Made by a program: the position numbers and the translations under genes. From Patescibacteria group bacterium (lineage in GTDB: Bacteria; Patescibacteriota; UBA1384; XYA2-FULL-43-10; 1-14-0-10-43-13), in contig JBAZNP010000001.1 in assembly GCA_041649155.1 (NCBI GenBank), positions 238,564 through 302,563 on the forward strand: DNA of 64,000 bases, in the 5' to 3' direction. The notes under the pieces were generated by a model, which had not been told where the DNA came from, did not search any database, and saw nothing but the letters and a program-made list of their open reading frames with translations. This document shows, piece by piece, positions 5,666 to 54,177 of this stretch (the stretch's first letter is position 1; each line of letters begins with the position of its first letter).

Positions 5666-6943
5666 TTAAATCTTTAGAACTTTCATCTCCCCCCAGTTAT
5701 TCCCGACTTTAACCTCGGCAACAATCGGAACGCAAAGCTTAATCACTTGTTCCATTGTCTCTTTGACAATTTTTGCAACCTCCGAAACAGCAGAATCCAC
5801 AACTTCGATTATAAGTTCATCATGAATGGTTAAGAGCATTTGAGCTTTAAATTTATTTTTATTTAAATCGTCCAGCTTTTTTTCGAGATCAATCATAGCT
5901 AATTTCAAAATTTCGGCCGCCGACCCTTGCACTGGAGTATTTATCGCCATTCTTTCTTCCGCATTGGCAATATTGCGATAATGAGAATCAATATTCGGCA
6001 GCATTCTTTTGAAACCAAATATTGTTTCGACGTACCCTTCATCATGCGCTTTTCCGATCATCCGATTGCAGTAATCCTTAATTCCAGAATGAGCTGTGAA
6101 ATATCGACTTATGAAGTCCGCCGCTTTTTCTTGTTCTATACTTAAAGACTGCGACAAACCATAAGGGCTCATGCCATACAAAACTCCAAAATTAACGGTC
6201 TTAGCCACCCGTCTCTGGTCACTGGTTACCTTATTTGTTTTTGTATCAAATATTTCAGCAGCAGTTTTTGCATGAATGTCCTGATGTTGAATAAAAGCTT
6301 CTTTCATTACCTTGTCATTGGCCAGACAGGCCACAACTCTTAGTTCGATTTGAGAATAATCGGCAGAAATTAACTTCATTCCTTTTGAAGCGACAAAAGC
6401 TTTTCTAATTTTCTGACCCAGCTCTCCTTTTATGGGAATGTTTTGTAAGTTTGGTTCATTTGAAGTTAATCTGCCGGTAGTTGTATCCTGCCCATAAGAG
6501 GTATGAAGCCTGGATTTTTCATCAACCAACAAGGGCAGTGGTTTCAAATATGTTGATAGCAATTTTGAAAGTTCTCTGTACTCCAAAATTGGCTTGATGA
6601 TCTTATGTTTTCCTTCGAGTTTTTTAAGTTCATTGGCGGCCGTAGAATAACCGTTTTTAGTCTTTTTAATTTCACCATTTAACAGTTTAAACTTTTTATA
6701 AAGAATTTCTGCCATCTGCATCGGGGAATTGATGTTAAATTCTTCACCGGCCAGCTTCCAGATCTGTTTCTCAATTTTCCTTAATTTTCCTTCAGTATCT
6801 TTAGCTAGTGAATTTAATGATTTCACATCAATCTCAACACCGATTTTTTCCATCCGACGCAAAACCGGACCAATCTGTTCATTAATTTCCTTTGATGTTA
6901 TTTTTGGCAATTCAATGCCTTGTTCTTTTAAATGGGACCACAT
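5666..6943 (-). CDS. polA: DNA polymerase I, polymerase (palm/fingers/thumb) domain as a stand-alone gene
   Basis: 425 aa. Aligns with the Pol I C-terminal domain: NLQNIPIK, SADYSQIELRVVA, QRRVAKTVNFGVLYGMS, TIHDELIIEV. It begins exactly at the start of the polymerase domain; no 3'-5' exonuclease domain is present. Confidence 0.85.
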   Translation of the reverse strand: MWSHLKEQGIELPKITSKEINEQIGPVLRRMEKIGVEIDVKSLNSLAKDTEGKLRKIEKQIWKLAGEEFNINSPMQMAEILYKKFKLLNGEIKKTKNGYSTAANELKKLEGKHKIIKPILEYRELSKLLSTYLKPLPLLVDEKSRLHTSYGQDTTTGRLTSNEPNLQNIPIKGELGQKIRKAFVASKGMKLISADYSQIELRVVACLANDKVMKEAFIQHQDIHAKTAAEIFDTKTNKVTSDQRRVAKTVNFGVLYGMSPYGLSQSLSIEQEKAADFISRYFTAHSGIKDYCNRMIGKAHDEGYVETIFGFKRMLPNIDSHYRNIANAEERMAINTPVQGSAAEILKLAMIDLEKKLDDLNKNKFKAQMLLTIHDELIIEVVDSAVSEVAKIVKETMEQVIKLCVPIVAEVKVGNNWGEMKVLKI

Positions 6944-6955
6944 AGTAAGTTTGAA

Positions 6956-7032
6956 TTAAGAATTTTGAATTATGAATTATGAAATAGCAGCTCTACCTAT
7001 TAGCCATGATTCTTGATTCTAGATTCATGATT
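6956..7032. repeat. Family C palindromic element (GAATCATGAAT...AGAATCAAGAATCATGG core)
   Basis: The reverse complement closely matches 33466..33556 (agaatcatgaatNtagaatcaagaatcatgg). Both have flanking inverted arms (gaatcatgaat / attcataattc). Confidence 0.75.
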
Positions 7033-8130
7033 CTATAAAAGCTTCAGCTGTTCGTCTTTCTGCTTCTGCTCGGATGCTTCCTTAGTTTTTGGCGGCTCGG
7101 ATTTTTCAATTCCAAATCTTTTCAAAAGCGAATGAAACCCAAGTTCTAAAAATAACTCTTTCACTTTCTCTTTATCGTATTCTCCCCATTTGGCGTCATT
7201 GAGATCGAAATCAATCGGAACTTCCTTGTAAATTGTAGCCAGACTTTGCGACAAAAATGCCTGTTCCTTATATTGTATCAAAAGCTGCAAGATACGTGGT
7301 TTTATGTTTAATTTTTTGGCAGCCTCAACCAATTTATCATTTTCCATTTCACTGTTGTCATCCCGAGCGTAGTCGAGGGATCTTTTATTGGAAGATTTCT
7401 CCGCCCTCAGACAAGGCTGAGGAGTCGAAATGACAATATTTTTTTCAATTTTTTCATACAAATTTTTAAGCGTGTCAAATTGCTGGAGCAATTTAGTGGC
7501 AGTAACATTTCCGATATTCGGCACCCCTGGAATGTTGTCTGATGGATCACCAGCCAGTGCTTTTAGGTCAATAAAATCTTCCGGATCAAGACCATATTCA
7601 TCTTTAATAACTTTTCGATCTACCACCGCCATTTGAGACAGTCCTTTTCGAAGACTGTAAACAAAAATATTGCCATCTATCAACTGATAAATATCTTTAT
7701 CACCCGAAACAATATAAACTTCCAAGCCTTCATTCGGAATATGCTGGCATTTTGAATTATGTTCATGGCAGTTTTTAACTATTGTGCCAATACAATCATC
7801 AGCCTCATAACCTTCTTTTTCGTATATTGGAATTTCAAAAGCAGATAGCAATTCCTTTACCCTTGGCATTTGGTCATATAATTCCTGATCGGCTTTTACT
7901 CTTGTTGCCTTATAAGCCGCATATTGCTCGGTCCGAAAAGTTGCTTTTGAGACGTCAAAAGAAGCTGCTACATAATCCGGATGCAGGTCTTCCAGCGTTT
8001 TAATTAAAGTGGTTGTAAAGCCATATACAGCATTGGTCTGCTCACCCTTTCGGGTGGACATGCTTTTGGGTAACGCATGATAGGCACGATGTATCACCGC
8101 GTTAGAATCAATTAAGACAAGCTTTTTCAT
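7033..8130 (-). CDS. polA: DNA polymerase I 5'-3' exonuclease (FEN-like) domain as a stand-alone gene
   Basis: 365 aa. Starts MKKLVLIDSNAVIHRAYHAL...YGFT; acidic metal-binding clusters and helix-hairpin-helix GDPSDNIPGVPNIG match the 5' nuclease domain. Lys/Glu-rich C-terminal tail. Confidence 0.85.
   Translation of the reverse strand: MKKLVLIDSNAVIHRAYHALPKSMSTRKGEQTNAVYGFTTTLIKTLEDLHPDYVAASFDVSKATFRTEQYAAYKATRVKADQELYDQMPRVKELLSAFEIPIYEKEGYEADDCIGTIVKNCHEHNSKCQHIPNEGLEVYIVSGDKDIYQLIDGNIFVYSLRKGLSQMAVVDRKVIKDEYGLDPEDFIDLKALAGDPSDNIPGVPNIGNVTATKLLQQFDTLKNLYEKIEKNIVISTPQPCLRAEKSSNKRSLDYARDDNSEMENDKLVEAAKKLNIKPRILQLLIQYKEQAFLSQSLATIYKEVPIDFDLNDAKWGEYDKEKVKELFLELGFHSLLKRFGIEKSEPPKTKEASEQKQKDEQLKLL
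7355..7436. repeat. Family A palindromic element copy inside the polA 5'-nuclease CDS, reading frame kept
   Basis: Same TTGTCATCCCGAGC ... TCGAAATGACAA termini as 2105..2207. Translated on the minus strand it contributes about 27-30 extra residues (NIVISTPQPCLRAEKSSNKRSLDYARDDNS) between conserved 5'-nuclease blocks. Confidence 0.8.
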
Positions 8131-9883: not shown

Positions 9884-10555
9884 ATGTTTGGAAAAATTCA
9901 AAAGTTCGATTTGTTAGTCTCAATATTTATTTTTTGCACCATTGTCTCAGAACTGATGGGAGCAAAAACTTTCCCGTTGGCAACCATTGGCTCTTTTCAT
10001 TTAAATGCCAGTGTAGCAATCTTTGTTATTCCGGTTCTTTTTGCTGTTGACGACATTATCACTGAAGTATTCGGCAAGGAAAGAGCTAGAAGTGTTATTC
10101 GCTCAAGTCTGGTTGTGATTGTTCTCCTTTCTCTCTTCTCTCTTTTGGCGACACATCTTGCGCCTTCAACCCGATTTGCACCATCCGAAAGTGCATACGA
10201 TCAGATTTTTCTGATTTCAATACGTATGTCTGTCGCAAGCCTAATTGCCTTTGGATTTGCAGAGCTTTTAGATGTTTATATTTTCTCGACAATAAGACAA
10301 AAACTCGGCAAAAAGAATCTTTGGCTCAGAACCAACGCTTCCAACTTCATAGCACAGTTCATGGACACTTCAATCTTCATATTTATCGCCTTTTATGCTT
10401 TAAATAAACCGTTTGGCGACAATTTTAGCTTTTTATTTGGTCTAATATTGCCCTACTGGCTCTTAAAATGTTTCATGTCCATAATCGAAACACCGTTTGT
10501 TTATTTGGGTGTCGGCTGGCTGAAAAAAGAACGGTTGTCAGTTGTAAGTGAATAA
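9884..10555 (+). CDS. yhhQ: Queuosine-precursor transporter YhhQ (DUF165 / VUT family)
   Basis: 223 aa, 6 TM helices, with the conserved FAVDDIITEVFG and YALNKPFG motifs of the YhhQ/COG1738 family. Confidence 0.7.
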   Translation: MFGKIQKFDLLVSIFIFCTIVSELMGAKTFPLATIGSFHLNASVAIFVIPVLFAVDDIITEVFGKERARSVIRSSLVVIVLLSLFSLLATHLAPSTRFAPSESAYDQIFLISIRMSVASLIAFGFAELLDVYIFSTIRQKLGKKNLWLRTNASNFIAQFMDTSIFIFIAFYALNKPFGDNFSFLFGLILPYWLLKCFMSIIETPFVYLGVGWLKKERLSVVSE

Positions 10556-10571
10556 GTTGTAAGTTTAAATT

Positions 10572-11321
10572 GTGAAAATAACCTCCATAAAAACAAATAA
10601 GATAGTTCCCGCACAATCGGATATTTTTTCTGTGCTTGATAAATATTTGCCGGATCTGGAAGATGGTTCCATTCTGGCAATTACTTCAAAAGTAGTTTCA
10701 ATTTGCGAAAGCAATGTTGTTAAAGTTGGAGAGGAAGGAAAAGAAGAACTCATCAAAAATGAAGCCGATTTTTATCTGCCTCCGACTAGTAATAAGTATA
10801 AATATTCCTTAACGATTAAAAATAATATTTTGCTGCCGGCCAGCGGAGTCGACGAATCAAATGGCAACGGTTATCACATTCTCTGGCCCAAAGATCCGCA
10901 AAAGAGTGCAAATAAGATAAGGGAATATTTGATAAAGAGGTTTGGATTAAAAAAAGTCGGAGTAATAATCACCGATAGCAAAACCATGCCTCTTCGTTGG
11001 GGTACAACCGGAGTCTGCATCGCGCACAGCGGCTTTAAAGCGCTCAATGACTACATCGGCAAACCGGATATTTTCGGGGCTAAAATGCAGGTGACTAAAG
11101 CTAATATTATAGATGCCTTGGCTGTGTCGGCAGTTTTAATAATGGGTGAAGGATCCGAACAGACACCAATGGCTGTAATCTCAAATATTCCCTTTGTTAA
11201 GTTTAAAAAAAACAATCCAACAAAAAAAGAGCTCGATGAGCTCAAAATTGATATTGAAGACGATCTTTATGCGCCCATACTAAAGAGCGTTAAATGGCAA
11301 AAAAGAAGAGCCCGCCGTTAG
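10572..11321 (+). CDS. CofE-like gamma-glutamyl ligase (F420-0:gamma-glutamyl ligase family)
   Basis: A block (KKVGVIITDSKTMPLRWGTTGVCIAHSGFKALNDYIGKPDIFGAKMQVTKANIIDALAVSAVLIMGEGSEQTPMAVI) aligns closely with archaeal CofE. Confidence 0.7.
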   Translation: MKITSIKTNKIVPAQSDIFSVLDKYLPDLEDGSILAITSKVVSICESNVVKVGEEGKEELIKNEADFYLPPTSNKYKYSLTIKNNILLPASGVDESNGNGYHILWPKDPQKSANKIREYLIKRFGLKKVGVIITDSKTMPLRWGTTGVCIAHSGFKALNDYIGKPDIFGAKMQVTKANIIDALAVSAVLIMGEGSEQTPMAVISNIPFVKFKKNNPTKKELDELKIDIEDDLYAPILKSVKWQKRRARR

Positions 11322-11339
11322 GCGAGCCCAATATGTGCT

Positions 11340-11936
11340 CTAAGCGAGCTGATTTGCGGCAATGTATTTCGCAACCTTCTGTTGCATTTCCGGTTCGACC
11401 TTGCCTGCAGATACAAGAACTTCCAACACCTCAGAAAGTTTTCCGAGCGAATGAAGCTTGTATCCAGCTTTGGCAAGAATCTTGTCGCCGCCTTGTTCAC
11501 GGTCAAGGATAACTAAAACATCTTCCACTACCAGGCCTGCTTCCTTGAGTGGAGCAATGGCTTCGATCTTGCTGGCGCCGTCAGTGATAATGTCATCGAT
11601 CACCAAGACTCTATCACCCTCCTCGTACTCGCCTTCGATCAGCTTCTTGGTACCATATTCCTTGACTTCCTTGCGTGAGTAAATCATTGGAATATTTCCT
11701 TCGAGAGAAGCAGATACTCCAAGTGGAATGCCAGCATAAGGAATTCCAGCGATCAGATCGCATCCGATTTCTTTTGCCTTATTAGACAATGCACAACCGA
11801 TTTCCGAAAGAAGCTCCGGTTTGGAAACCAATCCGCGAAAGTCGCAATAAACTGGAGACGTACTCCCATTTTTAAGAATGAACTCTCCAAATTTAATGCA
11901 TCCAGCGTCAAAGATATTTCCATACAATTCTTTCAT
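11340..11936 (-). CDS. pyrE: Orotate phosphoribosyltransferase
   Basis: PRPP-binding motif VLVIDDIITDGASK and an OPRTase N-terminal region. GC is about 50%, against about 35% in the flanks. Confidence 0.9.
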   Translation of the reverse strand: MKELYGNIFDAGCIKFGEFILKNGSTSPVYCDFRGLVSKPELLSEIGCALSNKAKEIGCDLIAGIPYAGIPLGVSASLEGNIPMIYSRKEVKEYGTKKLIEGEYEEGDRVLVIDDIITDGASKIEAIAPLKEAGLVVEDVLVILDREQGGDKILAKAGYKLHSLGKLSEVLEVLVSAGKVEPEMQQKVAKYIAANQLA

Positions 11937-11980
11937 AGTTTCACCTCCTTTCTCTCACGTGAGTGATGAAACTTGAGGAC

Positions 11981-12916
11981 TCATCCCCTGTGAATGTAGA
12001 CAGGATATCCGATCTTTGTCTCCAAGGCCTGGTTTAGATCCCTGTTTGCGTCATCGATAGCTGCTGCAACCAAGGTAAGCGGGTCACCCTCTCGAGGTTT
12101 CCCAGATTTACGGTCAAACCAGCTATCAAGTGTGATGCCTCGCGAGCTGTTGACAGTACCCATCAGCTCCTTGCGAGTGTTGACAAGACCTTCTACTGCT
12201 CCAGCAGCTCCTCCACCTTGCGCTCCATATCCTGGAATCAGGAGGAAAACTTCATCCCCAGCATGCTGGCGACAGCTTGTTGCCTGCTCGGGCCAAGTCG
12301 CACCCACTACTCCGCCGACTCGGCCGAGATTGTTTGTAGCAGCCATGACCTGCTCGTTCCACGCTTTGACTCCCTCGGCCAAAAACTCGTAAACAAGTAA
12401 TCCCGAATCGAGCTTCTGGTCTTGGAGCCATGCTGCTTCGGGATTACTTGTGCGAATCATGGAAATAACCATGCAACCGCTTGCCAAGTCGTTCATCCAA
12501 GACAATGTGCCCTTGTTCGCCATGAATGTCGGACCAAGATAAGGAATAAAGGTACATGCATCTACGCCATATCTTCCGAATACCTCATCTGCATACTGAG
12601 CCATTGTCTCGCCTATATCTCCGCGCTTAGCATCGAGAATAACTAAGAGCCCCTTGCTCTTAGCGTAGGCTATAATGCGGATCATCATTTGGATGCCGCT
12701 TGGACCAAAAGCTCCATAATAGGCATACTGCGGTTTGACTACTGCAACTTTCTCAGCTGCAAGATCAATAACTGCCTCAAGGTATCTTTCCAATGCTGGA
12801 AGACCCTTATGCCCAAATGTTTTAGGCACATGCTGGAAGGTTGGATCCAATCCAACACAGAGAACAGACTTCTTGACCAATACTGCTTTTAAATAACGAG
12901 TTACAAAGCTCTGCAC
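11981..12916 (-). CDS. pyrF: Orotidine-5'-phosphate decarboxylase (long, type 2 form)
   Basis: 311 aa with VKPQYAYY...ILDAKRGDIGET motifs. GC is about 50-53%, which produces several long antisense ORFs that are artefacts. Confidence 0.85.
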   Translation of the reverse strand: MQSFVTRYLKAVLVKKSVLCVGLDPTFQHVPKTFGHKGLPALERYLEAVIDLAAEKVAVVKPQYAYYGAFGPSGIQMMIRIIAYAKSKGLLVILDAKRGDIGETMAQYADEVFGRYGVDACTFIPYLGPTFMANKGTLSWMNDLASGCMVISMIRTSNPEAAWLQDQKLDSGLLVYEFLAEGVKAWNEQVMAATNNLGRVGGVVGATWPEQATSCRQHAGDEVFLLIPGYGAQGGGAAGAVEGLVNTRKELMGTVNSSRGITLDSWFDRKSGKPREGDPLTLVAAAIDDANRDLNQALETKIGYPVYIHRG

Positions 12917-13070
12917 TAATGGAAACCTCCTCCAAAAAGATAGGAGGCATTTCAGCCTCCTTCCGATATTTTATACAATAAAAACACTTAAAAGGCAAAC
13001 AAAAATTCGCAACCAGTGCAAAAAATTTGTTAACATATATTTGAGCAATTATATTTAACAAAGGAGAAAT

Positions 13071-13478
13071 ATGGGAGAATTAATGACCGAAATGTCACAA
13101 GAAGAAACCAAAGAAACAAAGGAGCGAACTGACTTTGCCAAAATTGCAGAGATAAATAAAAATGCTGCTTTAGAAATTGAAGGTCTCAGATTGTCGCAGA
13201 AAGAAAACTACTCAACTCAAAGTTTAGAGGAGTTATTAAACTGGCTAGAACAACCAATAGAAAATGAAGAACTTTTGGAAATTATTGAAAAATCTTTAAA
13301 GGCAGCTCATATTATGGCTGATGATGAGAAAACGAACATCCAGACAGAAATTAATACAGTTAAAGACGATTTAAGCAATATGATTCATGATCGTAATTTC
13401 ATCACACAATTTCATACAAAAACAGAGGGTTTATTTGAATTCTGTAAAGCCCTCTCTTATTTCTCTTTAATGAAATAA
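13071..13478 (+). CDS. Hypothetical acidic protein
   Basis: 135 aa, Glu-rich and predicted helical, no motif recognised. It is the only plus-strand gene inside a run of minus-strand genes. Confidence 0.3.
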   Translation: MGELMTEMSQEETKETKERTDFAKIAEINKNAALEIEGLRLSQKENYSTQSLEELLNWLEQPIENEELLEIIEKSLKAAHIMADDEKTNIQTEINTVKDDLSNMIHDRNFITQFHTKTEGLFEFCKALSYFSLMK

Positions 13479-13516
13479 CTGTATCTTAAAATATTGTAGA
13501 TTGTTTTAATTGGAAT

Positions 13517-13550
13517 AAAAAAACAGGGCCTGCCATCATGGCAAGTCCTG
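13517..13550 (-). terminator. Rho-independent terminator for the radical-SAM gene
   Basis: Hairpin CAGGGCCTGCC...GGCAAGTCCTG followed on the minus strand by TTTTTTT. Confidence 0.5.
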
Positions 13551-13568
13551 CTGTAAGCATTCCCTCAC

Positions 13569-14999
13569 TTAGTCTGCAAGATGGTAAAGCCGCATTCCTG
13601 TCGGCTCTGGTACACTGTCTTCCGGAGTCCTTGGGAAATAATATAATTTTCCTTCTTTATTCCTTCTGCTTCCCCATTCGAAATCCGGTTTCTTTTTCAC
13701 TTCTCCGTTAACCCGGATATGTATACCGTCTATATTTGCATCCGGATCCCAATTTTCGTAATCGTCTCCTTTCCGCAATTCAACCGCTCGCCCAGTTCGA
13801 AAGGAAATTGGGGTGAGTAAGATATTACTTTTGATCCCCAATTTCTTCTCCATTAGACCACTAAACAATATGGCCATCATTTCCACAATCCGGCGGTCTT
13901 CATCATCTCCTTTATCGTAATACAGATTTACAAGCGGATTAAGAGAAGCTGCCTCACTAATCATTCTCTCGATCTCAGAAACATAAAGGCGGGAATCTTT
14001 CCTAAAATGCCGCTCTCCCGTTGAAACCGAAATTCGGTGTCGTTTACTATCAACCAGATGATTTTCGGCACAAATTTCGACGACTTTCTTCATCGCCCGA
14101 CAAGCGATTTTATCTTCAGAAAACCATCCTGCTGTTGTCACTGTAACTGGCCGAATGCACGTGGACATCAAACGAAAAACATCACCATAGTCTGCCGGAG
14201 TTCCATCCTGATGTAGAAAACGAAAATCACGATATTCAAGCGGATCATTATCCTCATAGTTGGAGACACAATTGATAATTGACCCTAAGTTAATTGGGAC
14301 GAAATGAAGATAGCGCCCCCTTAAGGCGTTCAGAGGCAAAGACTCCTCAAACGGGACTCTCAGTTTTAAAACCTTGCGGGGGAATTTCTCCCACTCGGCT
14401 AAAAGAAGATTAAAAAAGCCTATCAGCTCATTTTTACGGGCTGTGTTGACAAATTTCCGCACTCGAAATTTCTTAAAATCAACAATTTTCGCTTTCCTAA
14501 GATGTTCTTCCCAATCCTTCCACTCTTGGCAACCAAGTTTTTCGTACTTCCACTTCTTTTCCGCAATTTTCGCAATAGCCGCGAAAGGCGTCATCTCCAG
14601 TCGACAAGCAGCGTCTCTGTAGCACTGTTTACACTGGTGAGTACAACCTTTATGGGACTGAACGCAACTCAATCCCCAACCGAATACTTCCACCTCCTGC
14701 TCTGGAGTAAGATCAAAATCAGCGAAGAGTTCAAGTCTTGGATTCTCAACCGTAGGGAGAATGTCGACATACTTCGCTGGTATACTACCAGCGGCAAGAA
14801 AAGACTGTGCTTCTTTTTTTAACTCCATGCCTAATTCCGATAGCGGATACCGTTGGTGCAAGAACGCTCTTGCAATTAGATAAGCGATCTCCTCAGTGCT
14901 TTTTTTAGTAGTTCTCAATATTGCCACCACCTTTCCACATAGAATGTGCTCCTCTCTTGAGGCCGCGCCAACTATACCACGAAAAGAGTATTTTTTCAA
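13569..14999 (-). CDS. Radical SAM domain protein, family unassigned
   Basis: 476 aa with a canonical CxxxCxxC cluster (GCTHQCKQCY). No SPASM-like second cluster seen. GC is about 45%. Confidence 0.65.
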   Translation of the reverse strand: MKKYSFRGIVGAASREEHILCGKVVAILRTTKKSTEEIAYLIARAFLHQRYPLSELGMELKKEAQSFLAAGSIPAKYVDILPTVENPRLELFADFDLTPEQEVEVFGWGLSCVQSHKGCTHQCKQCYRDAACRLEMTPFAAIAKIAEKKWKYEKLGCQEWKDWEEHLRKAKIVDFKKFRVRKFVNTARKNELIGFFNLLLAEWEKFPRKVLKLRVPFEESLPLNALRGRYLHFVPINLGSIINCVSNYEDNDPLEYRDFRFLHQDGTPADYGDVFRLMSTCIRPVTVTTAGWFSEDKIACRAMKKVVEICAENHLVDSKRHRISVSTGERHFRKDSRLYVSEIERMISEAASLNPLVNLYYDKGDDEDRRIVEMMAILFSGLMEKKLGIKSNILLTPISFRTGRAVELRKGDDYENWDPDANIDGIHIRVNGEVKKKPDFEWGSRRNKEGKLYYFPRTPEDSVPEPTGMRLYHLAD

Positions 15000-16185: not shown

Positions 16186-17841
16186 CTAATCTAAGTCAAT
16201 TAACATATCATCCAAGGCGATGGTTGATGACATTTGAGATTCTTTTTTCCAAATCTCGCTTGTATCACTAAAATACTTTTCAATAACTTGCTTATTTTTC
16301 TCAAAGAACTTTTCGTTCTCTTCTTTATCAAACAGTTTTAGCTTTTCCATTTGATTCTTCAATTCAACTTTAGAAATCATCAGCGAGTGAGCTATGATAC
16401 CGCTTGATTCTTCAAGATTCTTATTATAATAATCTACTGTCCTCTCCCAAACGGAAACAATCTTTTTAACCTCACTTTTTCTTGCCTGAATTGTTTCTTC
16501 CTTGGCAACCAATACATCGAATATGGCAGGGTATTCCAAAGTTGAGGCCAGTAATTTTCCGCCAGATAAGTTCTTGGCCTGGGTCAGCCAAGGTTCGAAT
16601 GTAACTGCAGCATCCACCTTGTCAGAGATTAGGGCAGCGCCAATATCGCTCCCCTTCAAGTGGACCAGCTTTACATCCTCCGAGGAAAGGTTATTTTGTT
16701 TAAGCAAATATAACAAGAAAAAATGACTTACCCAGTTTTCCTCAACAGCAATTTTTTTACCTTTTAGGTCATTGAAATTAGAAATATCCTTATTTACGAT
16801 TAGCCCATCCCCACCCACAGATTGATTGAGAGCCATTATTATCTTCAGGTCTTTTATTTTCTCTTTGGCGAGTATTGCAGTATCCAGCGTTGAAACAAAT
16901 AAATCCACATTCCTTTCAATCAATGGCTCGACTCGGTTTTCTTGTTTCTCAAGGTCAATCAATTCAACATCGAGTTTATTTTTATCAAACAAACCAAGTT
17001 CTCTCGCAATGTAAAACGGACTATTCCCAGGCCAAGCGTGAAGACCAATTTTAAGCGAATTGGGGTTGATTTCTTTGTACGATAGCCCTGCAGATTTTAG
17101 TGCCTCACCTCTTACCAAATAGGTCAAATGCTTCTTTACTTCAAAGAACTCTTGAGAAAGCTTGATGCTCGATATTCTTGGACGAGGCAAACCAATTGGG
17201 ACCACCTCTTTGATAGTTCCAGGACGAGCGCTCATAACATAAACACTATCAGCCAAAAATATAGCTTCCTCAATATCGTGAGTTACAAACAAAACCGTTT
17301 TTTTACTCTCTTCCCAAATAGAGGAAATAAGTTCTTGCATCAAACTTTTTGTTTGTGTATCCAAGCTAGAAAATGGCTCATCCATTAACAAAACATCAGG
17401 GTTTCGAGCCAAAACTGTGGCAATAGCCACCCTCTGTCTCATTCCACCAGATAGTTCACTAATATAGGCATTTTCAACCCCCTTCAACCCTACGGCATTG
17501 ATAAAATACCTGGTTATCTCATTTTTCTTCTTCCTGTCCATCTTACTGTCTAGCCCAAAAGCAATGTTATCTCGAACACTTAGCCAGGGAAAAGCAACGT
17601 AATTTTGGAAAACAAAACCAATCTTTTCATTGGGAAACTCGATTTTTTTACTGCCATAAAAAACATCGCCTGAATCTGGTTTTATCATTCCAGCAATCGT
17701 TTTTAATAGTGTTGTCTTACCGCACCCAGAAGGACCAACAATTGCAATAAACTTCTTATCCTCCGCTGAGACAGAAATGTCTTTTAGCACTTGGTTCTTA
17801 TCAAATGCAACGAATAGATTTTTTATATTTAATATGCTCAT
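16186..17841 (-). CDS. ABC ATPase (NitT/TauT family) fused to a C-terminal NMT1/SsuA-like substrate-binding-protein domain
   Basis: N-terminal Walker A GPSGCGKTT, signature LSGGMRQRVAIA, Walker B LLMDEPFSSLD. Residues about 250-551 resemble the separate binding protein at 20419..21450; both carry DAAVTFEPWL. Confidence 0.8.
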   Translation of the reverse strand: MSILNIKNLFVAFDKNQVLKDISVSAEDKKFIAIVGPSGCGKTTLLKTIAGMIKPDSGDVFYGSKKIEFPNEKIGFVFQNYVAFPWLSVRDNIAFGLDSKMDRKKKNEITRYFINAVGLKGVENAYISELSGGMRQRVAIATVLARNPDVLLMDEPFSSLDTQTKSLMQELISSIWEESKKTVLFVTHDIEEAIFLADSVYVMSARPGTIKEVVPIGLPRPRISSIKLSQEFFEVKKHLTYLVRGEALKSAGLSYKEINPNSLKIGLHAWPGNSPFYIARELGLFDKNKLDVELIDLEKQENRVEPLIERNVDLFVSTLDTAILAKEKIKDLKIIMALNQSVGGDGLIVNKDISNFNDLKGKKIAVEENWVSHFFLLYLLKQNNLSSEDVKLVHLKGSDIGAALISDKVDAAVTFEPWLTQAKNLSGGKLLASTLEYPAIFDVLVAKEETIQARKSEVKKIVSVWERTVDYYNKNLEESSGIIAHSLMISKVELKNQMEKLKLFDKEENEKFFEKNKQVIEKYFSDTSEIWKKESQMSSTIALDDMLIDLD

Positions 17842-18605
17842 ATCACCGACTTTCTAAACCAAGGGAAAAGCAGTTTTCGTGACACCTTAAAAAGCTGGTC
17901 AAATGATATTCCGAGCAATCCAACAATGATAATTGCGAAAATAACATTTTCAGTTTTTAATAATCTTTGAGATTGGATAATTACGAAACCAATTCCTGAA
18001 GTTGAGCCAACGATTTCAGCGATTAGCAAACTAGACCACGCCCAGCCAAGAGAAACTCGCATATCATCAACAATTCGAGGCCAACTATAAGGCAAGACGA
18101 CCCTGCTAACAACATTTAATCTGTTTAGACCTAACGTTCTTCCAAATTGAATCATATCGCCAGGGACTTGAGAGACAGAATTGGCTATCATCAGAACAAG
18201 TTGAAAGAAAACACTAGCAGAAATTATCACGATTTTTTCAGTTTCACCAATACCCAGCCAGAGGATAAGAAGAGGAACAAACGCAGGAATAGGAGTATAT
18301 CGCACAAAATCGATAACAGGTTCGAGAAAAAGTTCTATGCTCTTATTCGAGCCAATCAATAGCCCTAGCGGTATGGCTAAAATTACCCCAGCAGTAAAAC
18401 CCAGAAATATCCTTGCCAAGCTATATAATATGTCATTAGAAAAATTATTATTAACAAACAAAAGATACCCAGCTTTAGCAACGCTGATTGGACTTGGTAG
18501 AAAGTAGGACTGCACTAATCCGTTTCTGGTAACTAGATACCAAATTAAAATAATTGCTATGAAGGGCAACAATATAATAATTATATTTTTTCTTCTGTTT
18601 GTCAC
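17838..18605 (-). CDS. ABC transporter permease (NitT/TauT family, SsuC/TauC-like)
   Basis: 255 aa, 6 TM helices, with the EAA-like loop of binding-protein-dependent permeases. Overlaps its neighbours by 4 nt (ATGA) at both ends. Confidence 0.8.
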   Translation of the reverse strand: MTNRRKNIIIILLPFIAIILIWYLVTRNGLVQSYFLPSPISVAKAGYLLFVNNNFSNDILYSLARIFLGFTAGVILAIPLGLLIGSNKSIELFLEPVIDFVRYTPIPAFVPLLILWLGIGETEKIVIISASVFFQLVLMIANSVSQVPGDMIQFGRTLGLNRLNVVSRVVLPYSWPRIVDDMRVSLGWAWSSLLIAEIVGSTSGIGFVIIQSQRLLKTENVIFAIIIVGLLGISFDQLFKVSRKLLFPWFRKSVI

Positions 18606-20404
18606 GGTTTCACCACGTTATCTTTTCCTTCTTCTCCATTTTTCTTTTTAAGTATCGCTGCGAGTTCCTTGGTCCTTTCGAATATGTCTTGGATTTCCTC
18701 TTTCGACAAAACAACGTTTCCTTCAGAATCAACGTGTTCATACGTTGCCTGGTCACTAAATAATGCCTTCTTACTGGTCTCTTCAAGGTCTGCGTCGAAC
18801 TTTAGGTCTCTGCCTATAACCTTAGATTTTCTGGCAGAAGTCCCTGGAAGCGGAACAAAGACGTGTGCTTCAAGTTCACTGATTAGCCCTTCATCAACGA
18901 GTTTTTTCAAGAAAGCCAACGATTGTTCTTCCCTTTCTTTGGTAGCTCCTGGCAATCCGATAATCCAAAAAGCACCAACACCGATTCCTGCTTCTTTCAA
19001 GCGTCTGCAAGCTGGTTCTACCCATTCAACCTCTGTATCCTTCAAACTAGCGTCCAATATCTCTTGAGAACCGCTCTCAATTCCCAACAGGACAAAGTTC
19101 ACCCCACTCTCTCTCATATCACCTAAAACTCTTTCTGGCTCACCAATTAGAGTATTGGCCCTTGGATTTCTTCTTTTTTCAACAGCTTCATTTTCCCTTC
19201 CTCGAAGATGACCGACTCTTGCTTGAGCAATAAAGTTGATGTCAGGATATTGTTGATGGATTTCTTTGAGTATGGGTTCGATAACTTCAAACACTGTCTT
19301 TTTCTCTACTGCTTCCGATTCTTTGTCAGTGACTTTTCCATCAGCGTCAAACCATAGCTCAAGCAGTAAGTCATCATCCAATATACCAACATTTTTCTCT
19401 CTGCCTTCTCTTTTATTTACCGCTTCAGCAACGTAACCCAATTCTTCTCTGAAGGACTCAAGCCCTATGTTTGTTATAAAATGACGATACATTTCGCTAC
19501 TCGTACAGAAAGCACAGCGCCCAAGGCAACCTCTAGCAAATAAAACATAATGGTTGAAGTCGCCAATATCAGTCCCTTCTGGAAGAATTACTTTGTCATA
19601 GTTCAAAGGTCCGATTTCTACTGGATTGCCTCGTTCCCTCCGACCAGTTCGTTTAACTTCTTCTCCACCCCAATAGCTCAATCCCTTGATTGACGATAAA
19701 TCAACTGGCGCATCCTCGCCCTGTTTTTTCATCTCTTCCATTAAATCCAGCATTGTCCATTCGCCCTCATAATCGATAATGGCATCAGCTCCAACTCCCT
19801 CTGGCGAAAGCATCTGTTTTCTTGAGTTTTCATCGAATGACGCAGCATTTCCACCAATAACAACTAACGTGTCAGGAAAGTTTTGTTTAATATACCTGGC
19901 CATTGCTAAAACAGAGCGCTCTGTAGGCGAAAACATATAGCTAAATGCAATTACTTTCGGATTTCTTTCTTCAATCAATTTATGTACAGTTTCACGCATC
20001 TTGGTAACGAAAAAAACTTCGTTGGCGACTCCCCTTTGAAGCTGTTGAGTTGATTCTTGTTCAGTAGGAGCAAAATTATCTCCAATTATCTGATTTATCT
20101 CGTCCCTACCTCCGATAAAATCCTGGTTTATAAAAGCATCCATAGGGACAACATTCGCCTCAAATCCCTTCCTGCCTAGTAATGTTGCAACACTTAATGC
20201 GCCTCTTGGGATTTCTTTGCTCATTCCTGAATCATCAAGCGCTTGTCCAGACAGTTCAGGGTCAGAATGAAAAGGAGCATCGAAAATAAGAATGTCAGAT
20301 TGTTCTGGGGGCAATTTTTCCTTACTTTCAATTTGTTGAATTGATTCTGGCTGTTCTATATCTGTTTCTTCTTGATGGAAACCACCACTGCTTTCTATGC
20401 TCAT
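18602..20404 (-). CDS. Cobalamin-binding radical SAM enzyme (class B radical SAM)
   Basis: 600 aa. N-terminal B12-binding-like Rossmann region (KVIAFSYMFS...LVVIGGNAASF) followed by a radical SAM core with FARGCLGRCAFCTS (CxxxCxxC). Confidence 0.75.
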   Translation of the reverse strand: MSIESSGGFHQEETDIEQPESIQQIESKEKLPPEQSDILIFDAPFHSDPELSGQALDDSGMSKEIPRGALSVATLLGRKGFEANVVPMDAFINQDFIGGRDEINQIIGDNFAPTEQESTQQLQRGVANEVFFVTKMRETVHKLIEERNPKVIAFSYMFSPTERSVLAMARYIKQNFPDTLVVIGGNAASFDENSRKQMLSPEGVGADAIIDYEGEWTMLDLMEEMKKQGEDAPVDLSSIKGLSYWGGEEVKRTGRRERGNPVEIGPLNYDKVILPEGTDIGDFNHYVLFARGCLGRCAFCTSSEMYRHFITNIGLESFREELGYVAEAVNKREGREKNVGILDDDLLLELWFDADGKVTDKESEAVEKKTVFEVIEPILKEIHQQYPDINFIAQARVGHLRGRENEAVEKRRNPRANTLIGEPERVLGDMRESGVNFVLLGIESGSQEILDASLKDTEVEWVEPACRRLKEAGIGVGAFWIIGLPGATKEREEQSLAFLKKLVDEGLISELEAHVFVPLPGTSARKSKVIGRDLKFDADLEETSKKALFSDQATYEHVDSEGNVVLSKEEIQDIFERTKELAAILKKKNGEEGKDNVVKP

Positions 20405-20418
20405 TTATGCCTCAACTT

Positions 20419-21450
20419 TCAAAGGTTATTTATGATGCTCTTATCAACCGCATCGTCGATATTTGGTTTAGATTTTATCGAACCAATTTCGAGAAAAGCA
20501 TTGCTGAAAGTATCAGCAACGTCAAAGAACTTTCCCTTCTGATTTCCGACTCCAAAATACGTCTTATTTTCATCAAGCATCGGCCACTTAACACCTGTAA
20601 TTAGGTCAGCAAACTCAGAAGTTGACACGTTATAATGTTTGGCCATTATCTCGTTTGATTCTTGAGGATTAGCTTTCCAATAATCGAGCGCCTTAAACCA
20701 ACCTCTCACAACCTTTTTAACTGTATCTGGGTGATTTTTTAGATAACTTGCGTTTATTGACAAGGTATCAACAATTACTCCTGGTTCATCCGCACTGCTA
20801 ACCAACACTTTACCATCTTTTCTTTCTTTCGCCTTTGAAAGCCAGGGTTCAAATGTAACCGCTGCATCGACTTGTCCAGAAGCAAAGGCAGCTCCAGCCG
20901 CACCAGATTCAGTGTCTACTTCATCAACGTCAGATAAAGACATACCATTTTTCTTTAGAACATACATTAGGAAACTTTCACCGACAAAGTTTTTCTGGAC
21001 AGCAATTTTTTTGCCTTTCAAACCTTGGACGGTTTTGATGTCATTTTTCGTTACAATTCCATCAGCACCGTTGGATTCATCTACTTGTAAAACAGTTACA
21101 GATGGCACGCCTTCATCCCTCGAGAGAACCAATAAATCGACTGTGTCACCCAAACCGTCAACAGTCCCATTCATCATTGCAGCTTTTCTCTGGGCTGTAT
21201 CTTCGAGAGTCGTGATATTAACATTAACACCTTCATCTTTGAAAAACCCTTTTTCTTGGGCAAGGTATAATGGGCCGTAGCCAACCCAAGTATTCACGCT
21301 TAAATTAAACTGGTCCAGTCCCTCCGAACCCTTATTGTTTTTGTGATACAAAAAGTAAACTCCACCAGCAATAAGTCCTACTAAAATGACACCGAGAAAA
21401 GCAATTAACCATTTTCTTTTTGAATTGTCAGGTGAGATTTCGTCTTCCAT
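20419..21450 (-). CDS. NMT1/SsuA-type periplasmic substrate-binding protein with N-terminal membrane anchor
   Basis: 343 aa, single N-terminal TM helix, SsuA/ThiY-like fold motifs (GKKIAVQKNFVGESF...DAAVTFEPWL). Confidence 0.7.
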   Translation of the reverse strand: MEDEISPDNSKRKWLIAFLGVILVGLIAGGVYFLYHKNNKGSEGLDQFNLSVNTWVGYGPLYLAQEKGFFKDEGVNVNITTLEDTAQRKAAMMNGTVDGLGDTVDLLVLSRDEGVPSVTVLQVDESNGADGIVTKNDIKTVQGLKGKKIAVQKNFVGESFLMYVLKKNGMSLSDVDEVDTESGAAGAAFASGQVDAAVTFEPWLSKAKERKDGKVLVSSADEPGVIVDTLSINASYLKNHPDTVKKVVRGWFKALDYWKANPQESNEIMAKHYNVSTSEFADLITGVKWPMLDENKTYFGVGNQKGKFFDVADTFSNAFLEIGSIKSKPNIDDAVDKSIINNL

Positions 21451-21463
21451 ACTTACTCCCTTT

Positions 21464-22231
21464 CTATTTAATTATGGCTTTTGATTCAAATAACTCAAAC
21501 TTCACTGGGTGGGTTTCTACGGATTCAACACTTGCAATCGTACGAAATGTAAACCCATTATTTTTTATAAGCTCCTTTAACTTTTCAATATGCCCTAGCG
21601 TTGAAGAAAAACCGATTAGCAATCGGCCACCTTCTTTTAAGTGATTTTTTGCCTCTTCGATAAAAGTTCTTGTTGATTTGTATCCAGGGTCAAAAACTGC
21701 TTTTTCTAGGGTTGTGACATCTTCATTTTCAGTATATCCAAAAGGAGTATTCCAAAAAACCGTATCGAATTTTTTATCACCGATTGGAGAGTAAAGATTC
21801 CCTTCGTAAACGCTAACTTGTTTTTCCATCTTGTGTATTTTAGCGTTCTCCTGTGTGTTTTTAACTGCATCAGGATTTATATCAACAGCGGCCACTATAG
21901 CGCCCTTCAATGCCATCCAAACGCTAACGACACCACTTCCTGGCCCAATTTCCAAAAACTCTTCGCCCTGTTCCACAAAAATCTCTTTAGCAAAAAACTC
22001 TGTGTCAAAAAAATACTTTGGGCTGAAAACATTTGGATAAACTATAAACTTTTTGCCTAATATCTCTACCCAGTAAGGCGAAGTTTCTTTTTGGCTTTCA
22101 TCAAGGACCTTTTTAGTGCCATCAAGATATTTTTTCTTTTCTTTCATACAAAACTTCCAATCGATAATTATACGATTAGTATCTACATAAATTATAGCAC
22201 TGTCGGCTACTATCTGTCGACTTGTCAACAA
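21464..22231 (-). CDS. Class I SAM-dependent methyltransferase (small-domain MTase family)
   Basis: Gly-rich SAM site LEIGPGSGVV, an acidic residue ending beta-2 (VDIN), and an NTPF tetrad in the position of the NPPY/DPPF motif. Confidence 0.6.
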   Translation of the reverse strand: MLTSRQIVADSAIIYVDTNRIIIDWKFCMKEKKKYLDGTKKVLDESQKETSPYWVEILGKKFIVYPNVFSPKYFFDTEFFAKEIFVEQGEEFLEIGPGSGVVSVWMALKGAIVAAVDINPDAVKNTQENAKIHKMEKQVSVYEGNLYSPIGDKKFDTVFWNTPFGYTENEDVTTLEKAVFDPGYKSTRTFIEEAKNHLKEGGRLLIGFSSTLGHIEKLKELIKNNGFTFRTIASVESVETHPVKFELFESKAIIK

Positions 22232-23274: not shown

Positions 23275-23454
23275 ATGAGTCAACAAATCGTCAAAAAGAC
23301 AAAGCAAATCAGAATCAGCACAGAGCTGCACAAGCTTTTGAAAGTCGAAGCGGCAGAAGCTGGTAAATCAATCAAAACCGTCCTGGAGGAGAAGCTGGAC
23401 TTTGTACCCCCTACCCCCACTTGCGAAGCAAGCGAAGAGGGTTCAGATGAGTAA
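23275..23454 (+). CDS. Ribbon-helix-helix (CopG/Arc-like) DNA-binding protein, 59 aa, not in ORF track
   Basis: MSQQIVKKTKQIRISTELHKLLKVEAAEAGKSIKTVLEEKL... has the beta-strand / helix / helix pattern of RHH regulators. Its stop overlaps the next ORF's start (ATGA). Confidence 0.55.
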   Translation: MSQQIVKKTKQIRISTELHKLLKVEAAEAGKSIKTVLEEKLDFVPPTPTCEASEEGSDE

Positions 23455-23818
23455 GTGCAGCTTTATCAAAAAAGACGGTAACAAGTGCAGAGCTAATGCA
23501 ATGCACGATTCAAAGCTTTGTTTTGTTCATAATCCAGAGTGCGAAACAGAAAGACAAAAAGCCATCGTTGACGGAGGCAAGCAAACCAGAAAGCCGAGAG
23601 TATCAACGGAGGCAATAACGCTTGAGAAGATTGAGGATATTCTACCCTTTCTTAACAAGCTCATCAACGAGGTCAGGCGTGGGGATTTAACTTCAAAATC
23701 GGCAAATGCAATCGGTTATTTAATTAACATCGCAATTGATGCCCTTAAACAAACGGACATCGAACGAAGATTAAAGGAGATAGAAAATGCAATCAAATTA
23801 CGAGAAAAAGAGCTTTGA
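23447..23818 (+). CDS. Hypothetical protein (element cargo)
   Basis: 124 aa counted from the ATG overlapping the RHH stop. N-terminal Cys/His cluster (CSFIKKDGNKCRANAMHDSKLCFVHNPEC) that could be a zinc-binding motif. Confidence 0.35.
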   Translation: MSKCSFIKKDGNKCRANAMHDSKLCFVHNPECETERQKAIVDGGKQTRKPRVSTEAITLEKIEDILPFLNKLINEVRRGDLTSKSANAIGYLINIAIDALKQTDIERRLKEIENAIKLREKEL

Positions 23819-24404
23819 GCTTTTTGACAAGCTGGACATTTACGAAAAGTACAAGGTGATGATGTCCGAAAAAAGCGTTGTGAATACCAGGACTTTGCGG
23901 TCCAGGTTATCAACGGAGGAAGAGCAACAATTTTGGCAGATTTTAGACGATAGCAAAAAGTTTGCTCAAAACCTCAAGGAGTTATTGCTGTTGTCCTTAC
24001 TCAGAAAAGACGTTATGCAGGATATTTTGAAACTGCACCTCAAGCTCGTCGAGGACCAACCATTCAGAAAAACCGATGATGAACTTTTGGAAATCGTTAG
24101 TCAAATAAAAGATTCTGGGGCGGAGCTGGATAAATTAAACAATCAAATGCTTGAACTAATCGAAGAGACGGAATCATTGCAGCAATCCCTGCACCGCCTG
24201 AATTATCCTATCGCTTTTACTCCTGAAATGAATCCAGAAAAGATACGAATACAAGCAGAATTGTTTAAGGGGCTAACCGACATCGAAAATCCACAAGTTT
24301 TTATTCAGCAAGCGAGAGCTTTGGAAGTTCGAGAAATGGTTCAAGGTAATGAGTTAAGAGAAAACTTTATCAATCAAATCAATAAATGGCTTGAGGTCAT
24401 TTAA
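23787..24404 (+). CDS. Hypothetical protein (element cargo)
   Basis: 205 aa, predicted helical / coiled-coil, no motif recognised. Confidence 0.3.
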   Translation: MQSNYEKKSFELFDKLDIYEKYKVMMSEKSVVNTRTLRSRLSTEEEQQFWQILDDSKKFAQNLKELLLLSLLRKDVMQDILKLHLKLVEDQPFRKTDDELLEIVSQIKDSGAELDKLNNQMLELIEETESLQQSLHRLNYPIAFTPEMNPEKIRIQAELFKGLTDIENPQVFIQQARALEVREMVQGNELRENFINQINKWLEVI

Positions 24405-24422
24405 GGAATTAAGAGTTTAGCA

Positions 24423-24602
24423 ATGAAGCGAGTAATGCCAATTAAAACCGAGTTCAAACTACTGGAAAACGACGAAACAAAGAGTCGTGTTCAGTTGGCA
24501 TATAATCGCATCTTTACCATTGCTAATCAGAATCTTATGAAGCAAGAAATGGCAAAAAGGCAAGCAAAAAAGAAAGGAGGTATTGACAGTAATGTACAGT
24601 AA
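24423..24602 (+). CDS. Small hypothetical protein, 59 aa, not in ORF track
   Basis: MKRVMPIKTEFKLLENDETKSRVQLAYNRIFTIANQNLMKQEMAKRQAKKKGGIDSNVQ. Position and size fit a phage-type small regulator. Confidence 0.3.
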   Translation: MKRVMPIKTEFKLLENDETKSRVQLAYNRIFTIANQNLMKQEMAKRQAKKKGGIDSNVQ

Positions 24603-24639
24603 AGTACAATAAGAGTACATAAACAAAGGAGAGCTGATT

Positions 24640-24813
24640 ATGGAAAAACAAGAAAATGAGTTCCTAACCGTTGAAGAAGTAGCTGAAAAATATCGAGTCG
24701 CTGTTGCTACAATCTACCGAATGGTTAGAAAAGGAGAAATCCCAGCCATCAAGTTTGGCAAAGTGTGGAGAATTAAAAAGAACGAACTGGAAGAAAAATT
24801 AAGCAATAAATAA
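24640..24813 (+). CDS. xis: Excisionase / AlpA-family helix-turn-helix protein (57 aa), not in ORF track
   Basis: MEKQENEFLTVEEVAEKYRVAVATIYRMVRKGEIPAIKFGKVWRIKKNELEEKL matches the excisionase-family HTH_17 pattern (LT..E.A..L.VS..TIYR....G..P..K.G..WR.....L). It lies directly upstream of the serine recombinase. Confidence 0.7.
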   Translation: MEKQENEFLTVEEVAEKYRVAVATIYRMVRKGEIPAIKFGKVWRIKKNELEEKLSNK

Positions 24814-24868
24814 AACAAAGCCAGAGTCCTAACGACGAATTAGAAGCACTCTGGCTAAGGAGGAGTCA

Positions 24869-27566: not shown

Positions 27567-27597
27567 CTTGTCCTACTACTAATATCAACTCAAATTG

Positions 27598-27626
27598 ATT
27601 GACGTTTGAGTTCTTTTATGTTATAT
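27598..27626 (+). promoter_or_regulatory. Sigma70-like promoter candidate, TTGACG-N17-TATATT
   Basis: Hexamers with 17-nt spacing about 30 nt upstream of the AAGGGAG SD and the ATG at 27656. Confidence 0.35.
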
Positions 27627-27655
27627 TCGAGCTGCCCCGAAAGGGAGTACACAAC

Positions 27656-46290: not shown

Positions 46291-46449
46291 TACCCTATAT
46301 TCCCCCTCAAAACCAGCATTACGCCATATCGACGTTTGATTCAAAATAACAAAAATAATATTAAAAAATGATTAAGGAAAGATTAAATATTTATTAAGGC
46401 GTTCGTTTTTTTATCTGTAAATTAAAAGTAGTTACTTACCTACCCCTTG

Positions 46450-54058: not shown

Positions 54059-54177
54059 TTTGCTTAATTTTTTACACAGTTTAAGTTTATAAAAATAACT
54101 TACCATAACTAATATTTTCTTTCCAGAACAAACGACCATCTGGCATTTATTTAATTTTTTGTGCTATTATTTAAACA

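Follow-up and report, generated by a model that had tools for sequence, protein, structure and literature searches.

A probable mosaic: a partly ameliorated pyrF-pyrE operon with genes of separate origins in a low-GC Patescibacteria genome

We analyzed a 64-kb stretch (hereafter, the window; GC content 37.7%) of contig JBAZNP010000001.1, which belongs to a low-GC bacterium of the Patescibacteria, or candidate phyla radiation (CPR). The interval 11340..12916 of this window holds two same-direction genes on the minus strand, pyrF followed by pyrE (Table 1), which an earlier note on this DNA had described as a GC-rich, likely horizontally acquired pair that might serve orotate salvage. Our analysis indicates that they probably make up a mosaic and partly ameliorated foreign operon, in which pyrF and pyrE have separate origins.

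Organization of the pyrF-pyrE locus

The two proteins are on record at NCBI as MFA4995776.1 and MFA4995777.1, from a 798,787-bp contig of a Patescibacteria-group metagenome-assembled genome (MAG). The closest named relatives of the host GroEL, at 75-78% identity, belong to Patescibacteria and Candidatus Berkelbacteria. A strong Shine-Dalgarno sequence precedes each of the two pyr genes, and the single terminator-like site that the scan returned near their junction is a weak one inside pyrE (11833..11847; 6 pairs, 3 of them G-C). From this layout, with ribosome-binding sites of its own and a terminator-like hairpin, we infer that pyrF and pyrE form one self-contained operon.

Table 1. Features of the pyrF-pyrE locus, with the genes that follow pyrF in comparison loci (our L numbers) in the last row. 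GC3, GC content at third codon positions; PRTase, phosphoribosyltransferase.
Feature	Coordinates	Strand	Details
pyrF, orotidine-5'-phosphate decarboxylase type 2	11981..12916	-	311 aa; GTG start after GGAGGAGG; PF00215 9.5e-24, TIGR02127; GC 0.494, GC3 0.462
pyrE, orotate phosphoribosyltransferase, UMPS-type	11340..11936	-	198 aa; ATG start after AAGGAGGTG; TIGR00336; GC 0.451, GC3 0.437
pyrF-pyrE spacer of 44 bp, with the pyrE ribosome-binding site	11937..11980	-	sequence reading
Leader hairpin AGGAGGC...GCCTCCT with U-run, 25 nt upstream of the pyrF start	12942..12961	-	terminator-like site in the scan
Intrinsic-terminator-like hairpin, 9 pairs (7 G-C) with T-run, just downstream of the pyrE stop	11308..11329	-	terminator scan; runs into the 3' end of the cofE-like gene that converges on pyrE
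PRTase-like genes downstream of pyrF in relatives	L003:3111-3914, L004:11047-11811, L059:2067-2804, L061:2567-3322, L063:5939-6697, L006:11084-11821

Predicted enzyme functions

The gene identities proposed in the earlier note stood up to profile searches, both matches lying above the curated cutoffs. PyrF scored 212.7 bits over its full length against TIGR02127 (pyrF_sub2; cutoff 110.6) and 84.9 bits against PF00215 (cutoff 27), and PyrE scored 140.2 bits against TIGR00336 (cutoff 106.8), with the models of adenine, xanthine, and hypoxanthine PRTases at 57 bits or less. Residues K61, D95, K97, and D100 of PyrF (LDAKRGDIGET) are unchanged across 22 members of its clade, and the catalytic motif aligns to DAKRGDIGST of a solved orotidine 5'-monophosphate (OMP) decarboxylase (PDB 3v75). 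The window protein thus resembles the type 2 OMP decarboxylases (TIGR02127; solved structures 3v75 and 3r89) in its length of about 300 aa, its K...DAKRGDIG motif, and its full-length match. The best solved match of PyrE is the orotate phosphoribosyltransferase (OPRT) domain of human UMPS (2wns, E 3.9e-47). The loop that binds phosphoribosyl pyrophosphate (PRPP; hydrophobic stretch, D-D, T/S-G) is visible in its translation, read as VLVIDDIITDGASK and as RVLVIDDIITDGASK, and aligns to 2wns. All the sequence-level features of membership are thus found in both proteins, which are predicted to be ordinary members of their enzyme families. Accepting this assignment, PyrE would convert orotate and PRPP into OMP, and PyrF would decarboxylate OMP to uridine 5'-monophosphate (UMP) and CO2, the last two steps of UMP synthesis.

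Base composition of the pyr genes

The GC content of 11340..12916 is 47.6%, as compared with 37.5% in the remainder of the window, to which, rather than to the whole genome, the composition statistics of the pyr genes are relative. The elevation that the earlier note had set at 50% versus 35% is therefore real but somewhat smaller. Among the 53 open reading frames (ORFs) of the window, pyrF ranks first (49.4%) and pyrE third (45.1%) in GC content, and no other of the 313 sliding 1577-bp segments is as deviant in tetranucleotide composition as the pyr interval (L1 0.436 versus 0.259 +/- 0.036, i.e., ~4.9 standard deviations above the mean). Antisense frames, which the earlier note had called long and spurious, do exist but are modest, the longest being an 86-aa ORF and stop-free stretches of at most 130 aa.

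A gene whose protein abounds in Gly, Ala, Arg, and Pro (G/A/R/P) will look more foreign by raw GC content than it is. We separated amino-acid from codon effects by calculating for each gene the GC content expected from its protein under the window's own synonymous codon usage. This expected value was 0.449 for pyrF, the highest in the window (mean of the other genes 0.374, maximum 0.428), and the G+A+R+P fraction of PyrF reached 0.305 versus 0.198 for the window, so that ~60% of the GC excess of pyrF comes from its G/A/R/P-rich protein. The synonymous GC excess amounts to +0.044 in pyrF and +0.047 in pyrE, the two largest values among the 53 ORFs, with +0.035 to +0.040 reached by a serine-recombinase block (23402..26509), a PEP-CTERM-like gene, and the gene at 13569..14999. 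By codon log-likelihood, two genes are more atypical than pyrF (z -4.6), and pyrE departs just mildly from the norm (z -2.3).

The earlier note had itself named a result that would speak against a foreign origin, namely, values within the normal range for highly expressed genes. This explanation was ruled out, since GC3 of GroEL (0.286), S6 (0.283), and EF-P (0.323) is lower, not higher, and GroES likewise has an equal or lower GC3. The conserved enzymes PyrG, AhcY, H+-PPase, and PFL show no GC3 excess either.

Relatives and probable source of pyrE

The best 120 database matches of PyrE all share 64-83% of its residues, most of them have a length of 197-203 aa with few exceptions, and the organism name that occurs among them, besides the query's own Patescibacteria record, is Armatimonadota (7 times). 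Amino-acid identity to the nearest relatives is 75-83%, with 77% to the Armatimonadota PyrE in L055. In L052 and L054-L057, pyrE has the GC content of its flanks (0.54-0.60) and adjoins carA-carB. The full pyrR-pyrB-pyrC-pyrE-carA-carB operon is present in L054-L056, and L052 and the truncated L057 show parts of it. Further PyrE matches sit on contigs of 1.9 and 8.2 Mb and therefore come from large genomes. In a neighbor-joining (NJ) tree, the window PyrE nests within the Armatimonadota-type clade, beside L052. The PRTases encoded after pyrF in other Patescibacteria are at most 32% identical to the window PyrE or cannot be aligned with it.

The window PyrE thus shares its length, its PRPP loop, and 75-83% of its residues with the Armatimonadota UMPS-type OPRT (198 aa), itself kin to the human UMPS domain 2wns and to the bifunctional PRK05500. 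The genomic settings differ. The Armatimonadota gene has the GC content of its host and is flanked by pyrC and carA within a complete pyr operon associated with PyrR, whereas pyrE of the window lies outside such an operon, follows a pyrF of other ancestry, and has moved toward the 34% GC3 of its present genome. GC3 is 0.61-0.78 in donor-type genes, 0.44 in the window gene, and 0.34 on average in the host; if amelioration follows a simple exponential course, about three quarters of the shift toward host composition has taken place. Collectively, these comparisons strongly support horizontal acquisition of pyrE, probably from an Armatimonadota-like source. The transfer would be old rather than recent, because the window gene agrees with its nearest relatives at just 0.37-0.41 of third codon positions and because the GC3 of the two pyr genes (0.44-0.46) is only partly ameliorated. 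Both the direction and the age of transfer are what we infer from such figures.

A GC-rich pyrF lineage in low-GC genomes

PyrF has a different distribution. Proteins 58-78% identical to it form a clade encountered only on contigs with 33-46% GC in the flanks, limits that widen to 45% identity and 48% GC when the basal L006 is included. These contigs are labelled Berkelbacteria, Patescibacteria, Saccharibacteria, or unclassified 'bacterium', besides one 1.5-kb contig labelled as a 'Desulfitobacteriaceae' MAG. The next relatives, from Armatimonadota, Thermoguttaceae, Pirellula, and Clostridia, are ~40% identical. Unlike other type 2 PyrF proteins, the window clade is at most 45% identical to any named PyrF from outside the Patescibacteria (Armatimonadota, Planctomycetes, Clostridia), and it is confined to low-GC, small-genome contigs in which its genes are compositionally foreign.

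Flanking sequence sufficed for a comparison at 12 loci of the clade. In 11 of them the synonymous GC excess of pyrF is between +0.05 and +0.12, and at 10 of these 11 no local host gene has as large an excess. The GC-rich loci include L003, L004, L005, L025, L027, L029, L031, L061, L062, and L063; for instance, pyrF has 62% GC in L025 (flanks 42%; GC3 0.77) and 57% in the Berkelbacteria locus L003 (flanks 36%). The exception is L065 (+0.004); in L026, too, GC3 of pyrF (0.32) resembles that of the host. Between the window pyrF and all its relatives, four-fold degenerate sites are saturated, with observed identity close to that expected, so the copies have long been separate and yet are mostly GC-rich in AT-rich hosts. 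This pattern, which reaches beyond the window, may reflect repeated transfer from an unsampled GC-rich reservoir, turnover within the Patescibacteria that outpaces amelioration, or selection for GC. The accessible text of two papers on Patescibacteria genomes (PMC12455944; bioRxiv 10.64898/2026.06.21.733656) does not describe such a recurrent GC-rich state of one pyrF clade. On this evidence, horizontal transfer of pyrF is plausible.

The L065 contig (noted at 952-2562 and 6211-7902) also carries two further OMPdecase-family genes, one gene resembling signal peptide peptidase, and one ELP3-like gene of the radical SAM/acetyltransferase kind. Its gene content suggests an archaeal (DPANN-like) host, and the pyrF clade may thus cross domains.

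Probable mosaic assembly of the operon

The gene right downstream of pyrF in its relatives is always PRTase-like and ~250 aa long, yet at least five types that cannot be aligned with one another occur there. The examples that were scanned gave weak, sub-cutoff scores against OPRT models, and they may be either fast-evolving or repeatedly replaced pyrE analogues. L059, the closest relative with genomic context (71% PyrF identity), encodes a different PRTase type of 245 aa, and L058 carries a UMPS-type PRTase after pyrF, as the window does. L004 and L023 share the flanks holB-frr-rseP-proS-mreB-gatCA ... gyrB but hold pyrF genes of different clades between them. This variation of PRTase types, along with the difference between L004 and L023 at a syntenic site, favors exchange at the pyrF locus. 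The cofE-like gene, the Vut_1 gene, the DUF4238 gene, and the ATP-binding cassette (ABC) system of the window were found beside pyrF in none of the GTDB relatives tested.

The earlier note had treated the two genes as one foreign pair. Horizontal acquisition is well borne out for pyrE, which nests in the Armatimonadota-type clade, and less so for pyrF, the clade of which is limited to Patescibacteria-like contigs and has yielded no donor; a common origin is contradicted. The two genes would not have arrived together, because their clades differ in distribution. Co-transfer as a single cassette was ruled out, as Armatimonadota PyrF is 40% identical to the window protein versus 77-83% for PyrE, and the PRTase partners differ among pyrF relatives.

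We thus favor a mosaic of foreign DNA with two histories. The pyrF gene would represent a separate type 2 lineage, one that moves between Patescibacteria-like genomes of low GC content and appears as a GC-rich island almost everywhere, and pyrE would be a xenolog from an Armatimonadota-like donor of 54-60% GC. The latter would have taken, in situ, the place held in relatives by unrelated PRTases downstream of pyrF. The elevated GC content would then combine the G/A/R/P-rich make-up of the proteins with incompletely ameliorated synonymous sites.

According to PMC12455944, horizontal gene transfer (HGT) into Patescibacteria is common, mostly old, and mostly intra-phylum. Like the HGT islands covered there, the pyr locus is a small metabolic set of atypical composition in a streamlined genome that would have been acquired long ago, but, unlike them, it joins two adjacent genes of different source. 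A term search of the donor-phylum Table 1 and main text of that paper did not return Armatimonadota as a donor. What is specific to the window locus is the dual ancestry of a simple-looking operon, the Armatimonadota-like source of pyrE, and the recurrently GC-rich pyrF clade. It would offer a clean example of piecemeal operon assembly by transfer.

Possible orotate salvage and the ABC importer

Patescibacteria are thought to depend on their hosts for nucleotides. Which late pyrimidine steps they keep, and where the genes come from, bears on what hosts supply: RNA, nucleosides, or precursors such as orotate. As the earlier note had stated for pyrB, pyrC, and pyrD, tblastn and Pfam searches across the 64 kb found none of carA, carB, pyrB, pyrC, pyrD, pyrK, and pyrR in the window.

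Salvage would mean that the genome lacks carAB and pyrB/C/D and that PyrE and PyrF turn imported or host-cell orotate into UMP, possibly with the help of the nearby NMT1/SsuA-type ABC transporter. We regard this as a tentative and rather doubtful reading. It is in keeping with the absence of any other de novo pyr gene within 64 kb and with the presence of pyrG downstream (39182..40885). It also agrees with bioRxiv 10.64898/2026.06.21.733656, by which 93% of Patescibacteria genomes are without de novo nucleotide pathways and nucleotide-biosynthesis genes are phylogenetically scattered in the group. Chlamydia, which keep pyrE alone, provide a loose precedent (PMC3091639). In the Chlamydiaceae, as locally within the 64 kb of the window, a reduced host-dependent genome retains a late UMP step and pyrG in the absence of the early steps. 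Chlamydia, with pyrE but no pyrB/C/D/F, cannot finish the conversion, whereas the window organism has both PyrE and PyrF and is predicted to carry orotate through to UMP.

Against salvage, same-clade pyrF genes adjoin pyrD (L003, L004, and L065; class 1) or pyrB (L063) in relatives, and pyrD also lies beside pyrF-pyrE in L023, a less closely related locus from Paceibacter; in many of these genomes, then, the module belongs to a longer pathway. The window contains no known orotate carrier. The ABC importer, which the earlier note had taken as making the idea attractive, proved a poor link: three unrelated genes separate it from pyrF (a 135-aa gene on the opposite strand, a 476-aa gene, and a DUF4238 gene), and it does not lie beside pyrF in the GTDB relatives tested or in the Pfam contexts of further relatives. 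Nor did its presumed affinity for pyrimidines gain support, the best-matching families being of SsuA/taurine/nitrate type (TIGR01728, 165.9 bits).

The transporter genes themselves (16186..21450) have a B12-binding radical SAM gene among them and a methyltransferase gene (21464..22231) after them. This unusual minus-strand cluster (16186..22231) encodes a permease, a 551-aa ABC ATPase that carries a fused NMT1/SsuA-like binding domain, the B12-binding radical SAM protein (600 aa) between transporter genes, a separate SsuA-family binding protein (20419..21450), and the methyltransferase.

A broader conjecture, which we hold to be unlikely, is that pyrF with an interchangeable downstream PRTase, and sometimes pyrD, makes up a UMP-finishing cassette repeatedly exchanged among Patescibacteria and perhaps DPANN-like hosts (L065). 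Such a cassette would be kept GC-rich by turnover that outpaces amelioration or by selection, and it would let nucleotide-auxotrophic episymbionts convert host-derived orotate or dihydroorotate into UMP.

Less likely alternatives: native inheritance or assembly artefact

The alternative to foreign DNA is that both genes are native and vertically inherited, their GC content being gene-intrinsic and set by a conserved G/A/R/P-rich protein plus synonymous selection, e.g., for mRNA stability or structure. Several observations weigh against the mosaic interpretation and mostly lend themselves to this one. Beyond the ~60% of the pyrF excess that amino-acid composition explains, the synonymous excess of pyrF and pyrE stands just ~2 standard deviations above the other genes. 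The limits of the high-GC stretch are exactly those of the two coding sequences, which is what a property intrinsic to the genes would produce, and its borders show no mobility gene, tRNA, or meaningful flanking direct repeat, the nearest recombinase being 12 kb off (24869..26509). No GC-rich native host of the pyrF clade turned up among the genome and metagenome loci, or on the longer contigs P0012, P0017, and P0036. High GC3 that persists in 11 of 12 low-GC loci at saturated synonymous divergence could reflect selection rather than repeated transfer, as neutral amelioration of long residents should have erased the excess. Compared with their Berkelbacteria counterparts, host GroEL shows 76% and PyrF 66% identity, figures similar enough that pyrF may have descended vertically in a Berkelbacteria-like group. 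All our trees, moreover, are simple NJ trees without support values.

Native inheritance nevertheless fails for pyrE, the product of which has 77-83% identity to Armatimonadota-type proteins but only ~30% to the pyrF-linked PRTases of other Patescibacteria. As for pyrF, the near-zero excess in L065 and the low GC3 in L026 show that the protein tolerates host-like codon usage, the conserved enzymes and highly expressed genes of the window are free of such bias, and the syntenic site is occupied by a pyrF of one clade in L004 and of another in L023. We consequently judge native origin of the pair to be decidedly unlikely and retain a mosaic of two transfers as the probable explanation.

A chimeric contig, or a higher-GC contaminant joined to a Patescibacteria contig, would account for the abrupt GC step at both gene borders but is of negligible probability: of the three assemblies that carry the window PyrF, the two retrieved (ENA and Logan, assembled independently) are 100% identical to the window across both junctions, which also occur in a JGI contig, and an assembly chimera is thereby ruled out; besides, the genes are tightly spaced, with an 18-bp convergent gap and a terminator-like hairpin that overlaps the neighbor's 3' end, GC3 is intermediate (0.44-0.46) rather than donor-like, and like islands recur in more than 15 unrelated assemblies.

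Leader hairpin, neighbors, and other features of the window

The hairpin upstream of pyrF did not correspond to a known RNA regulator, a possibility that was ruled out. Its fold is not significant (z -1.6), and no conservation of it is visible among pyrF relatives. An Rfam scan of 10500..14000 (E<=1) returned no family at its gathering score, the PyrR element included, the sole match being FopS at 25.5 bits versus a threshold of 56. A pyrR gene was likewise not found in the window by tblastn. The 3' arm of the hairpin could alternatively pair with the pyrF Shine-Dalgarno sequence GGAGGAGG, and the element may act as an attenuator, a ribosome-binding-site switch, or a 5' stabilizer.

The immediate neighbors of the pyr pair are the cofE-like gene and the 135-aa and 476-aa genes, the latter two without an assigned family. 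As described in the earlier note, pyrE lies tail-to-tail with the CofE-family gene (F420_ligase/CofE; 10572..11321), at a distance of 18 bp. The label 'cofE-like' is sound at the family level, but the best-scoring model is TIGR04132 ('putative folate metabolism gamma-glutamate ligase'; 291 bits, under the cutoff of 350) and not F420 CofE. This ligase gene follows a Vut_1/YhhQ-type transporter gene on the plus strand (9884..11321 for the two). The 476-aa protein (13569..14999, minus strand) has a CX3CX2C motif (GCTHQCKQCY), a faint Fer4_12 match, and the second most atypical codon usage of the window (z -5.1), and is possibly a foreign, divergent member of the radical SAM enzymes. A comparison with the radical-SAM-like gene that adjoins pyrE in the Paceibacter locus L023 showed no homology.

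Farther away, a block of genes with atypical, GC-shifted codon usage (23402..29290) contains the large serine recombinase (24869..26509; Resolvase plus Zn_ribbon_recom) and ORFs without an assigned family beside a ychF-like GTPase gene, and is probably an integrated mobile element. A minus-strand gene of 46.4% GC (45709..46344) encodes a 211-aa protein with a C-terminal PEP-CTERM-like sorting signal. Such signals normally accompany the exosortase systems of Gram-negative bacteria, and one is odd for a Patescibacterium. DNA polymerase I is encoded on the minus strand by two genes (5666..8130), one for the 5'-3' exonuclease (7033..8130) and one for the polymerase domain (5666..6943; 425 aa), with no 3'-5' exonuclease domain detected in either. 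Finally, three tandem paralogous genes for Wzy_C/O-antigen-ligase-like membrane proteins (50322..54139, minus strand) lie beside glycosyltransferase genes and a gene for a ChW-repeat protein (54663..56276), together forming a predicted cell-surface polysaccharide locus.

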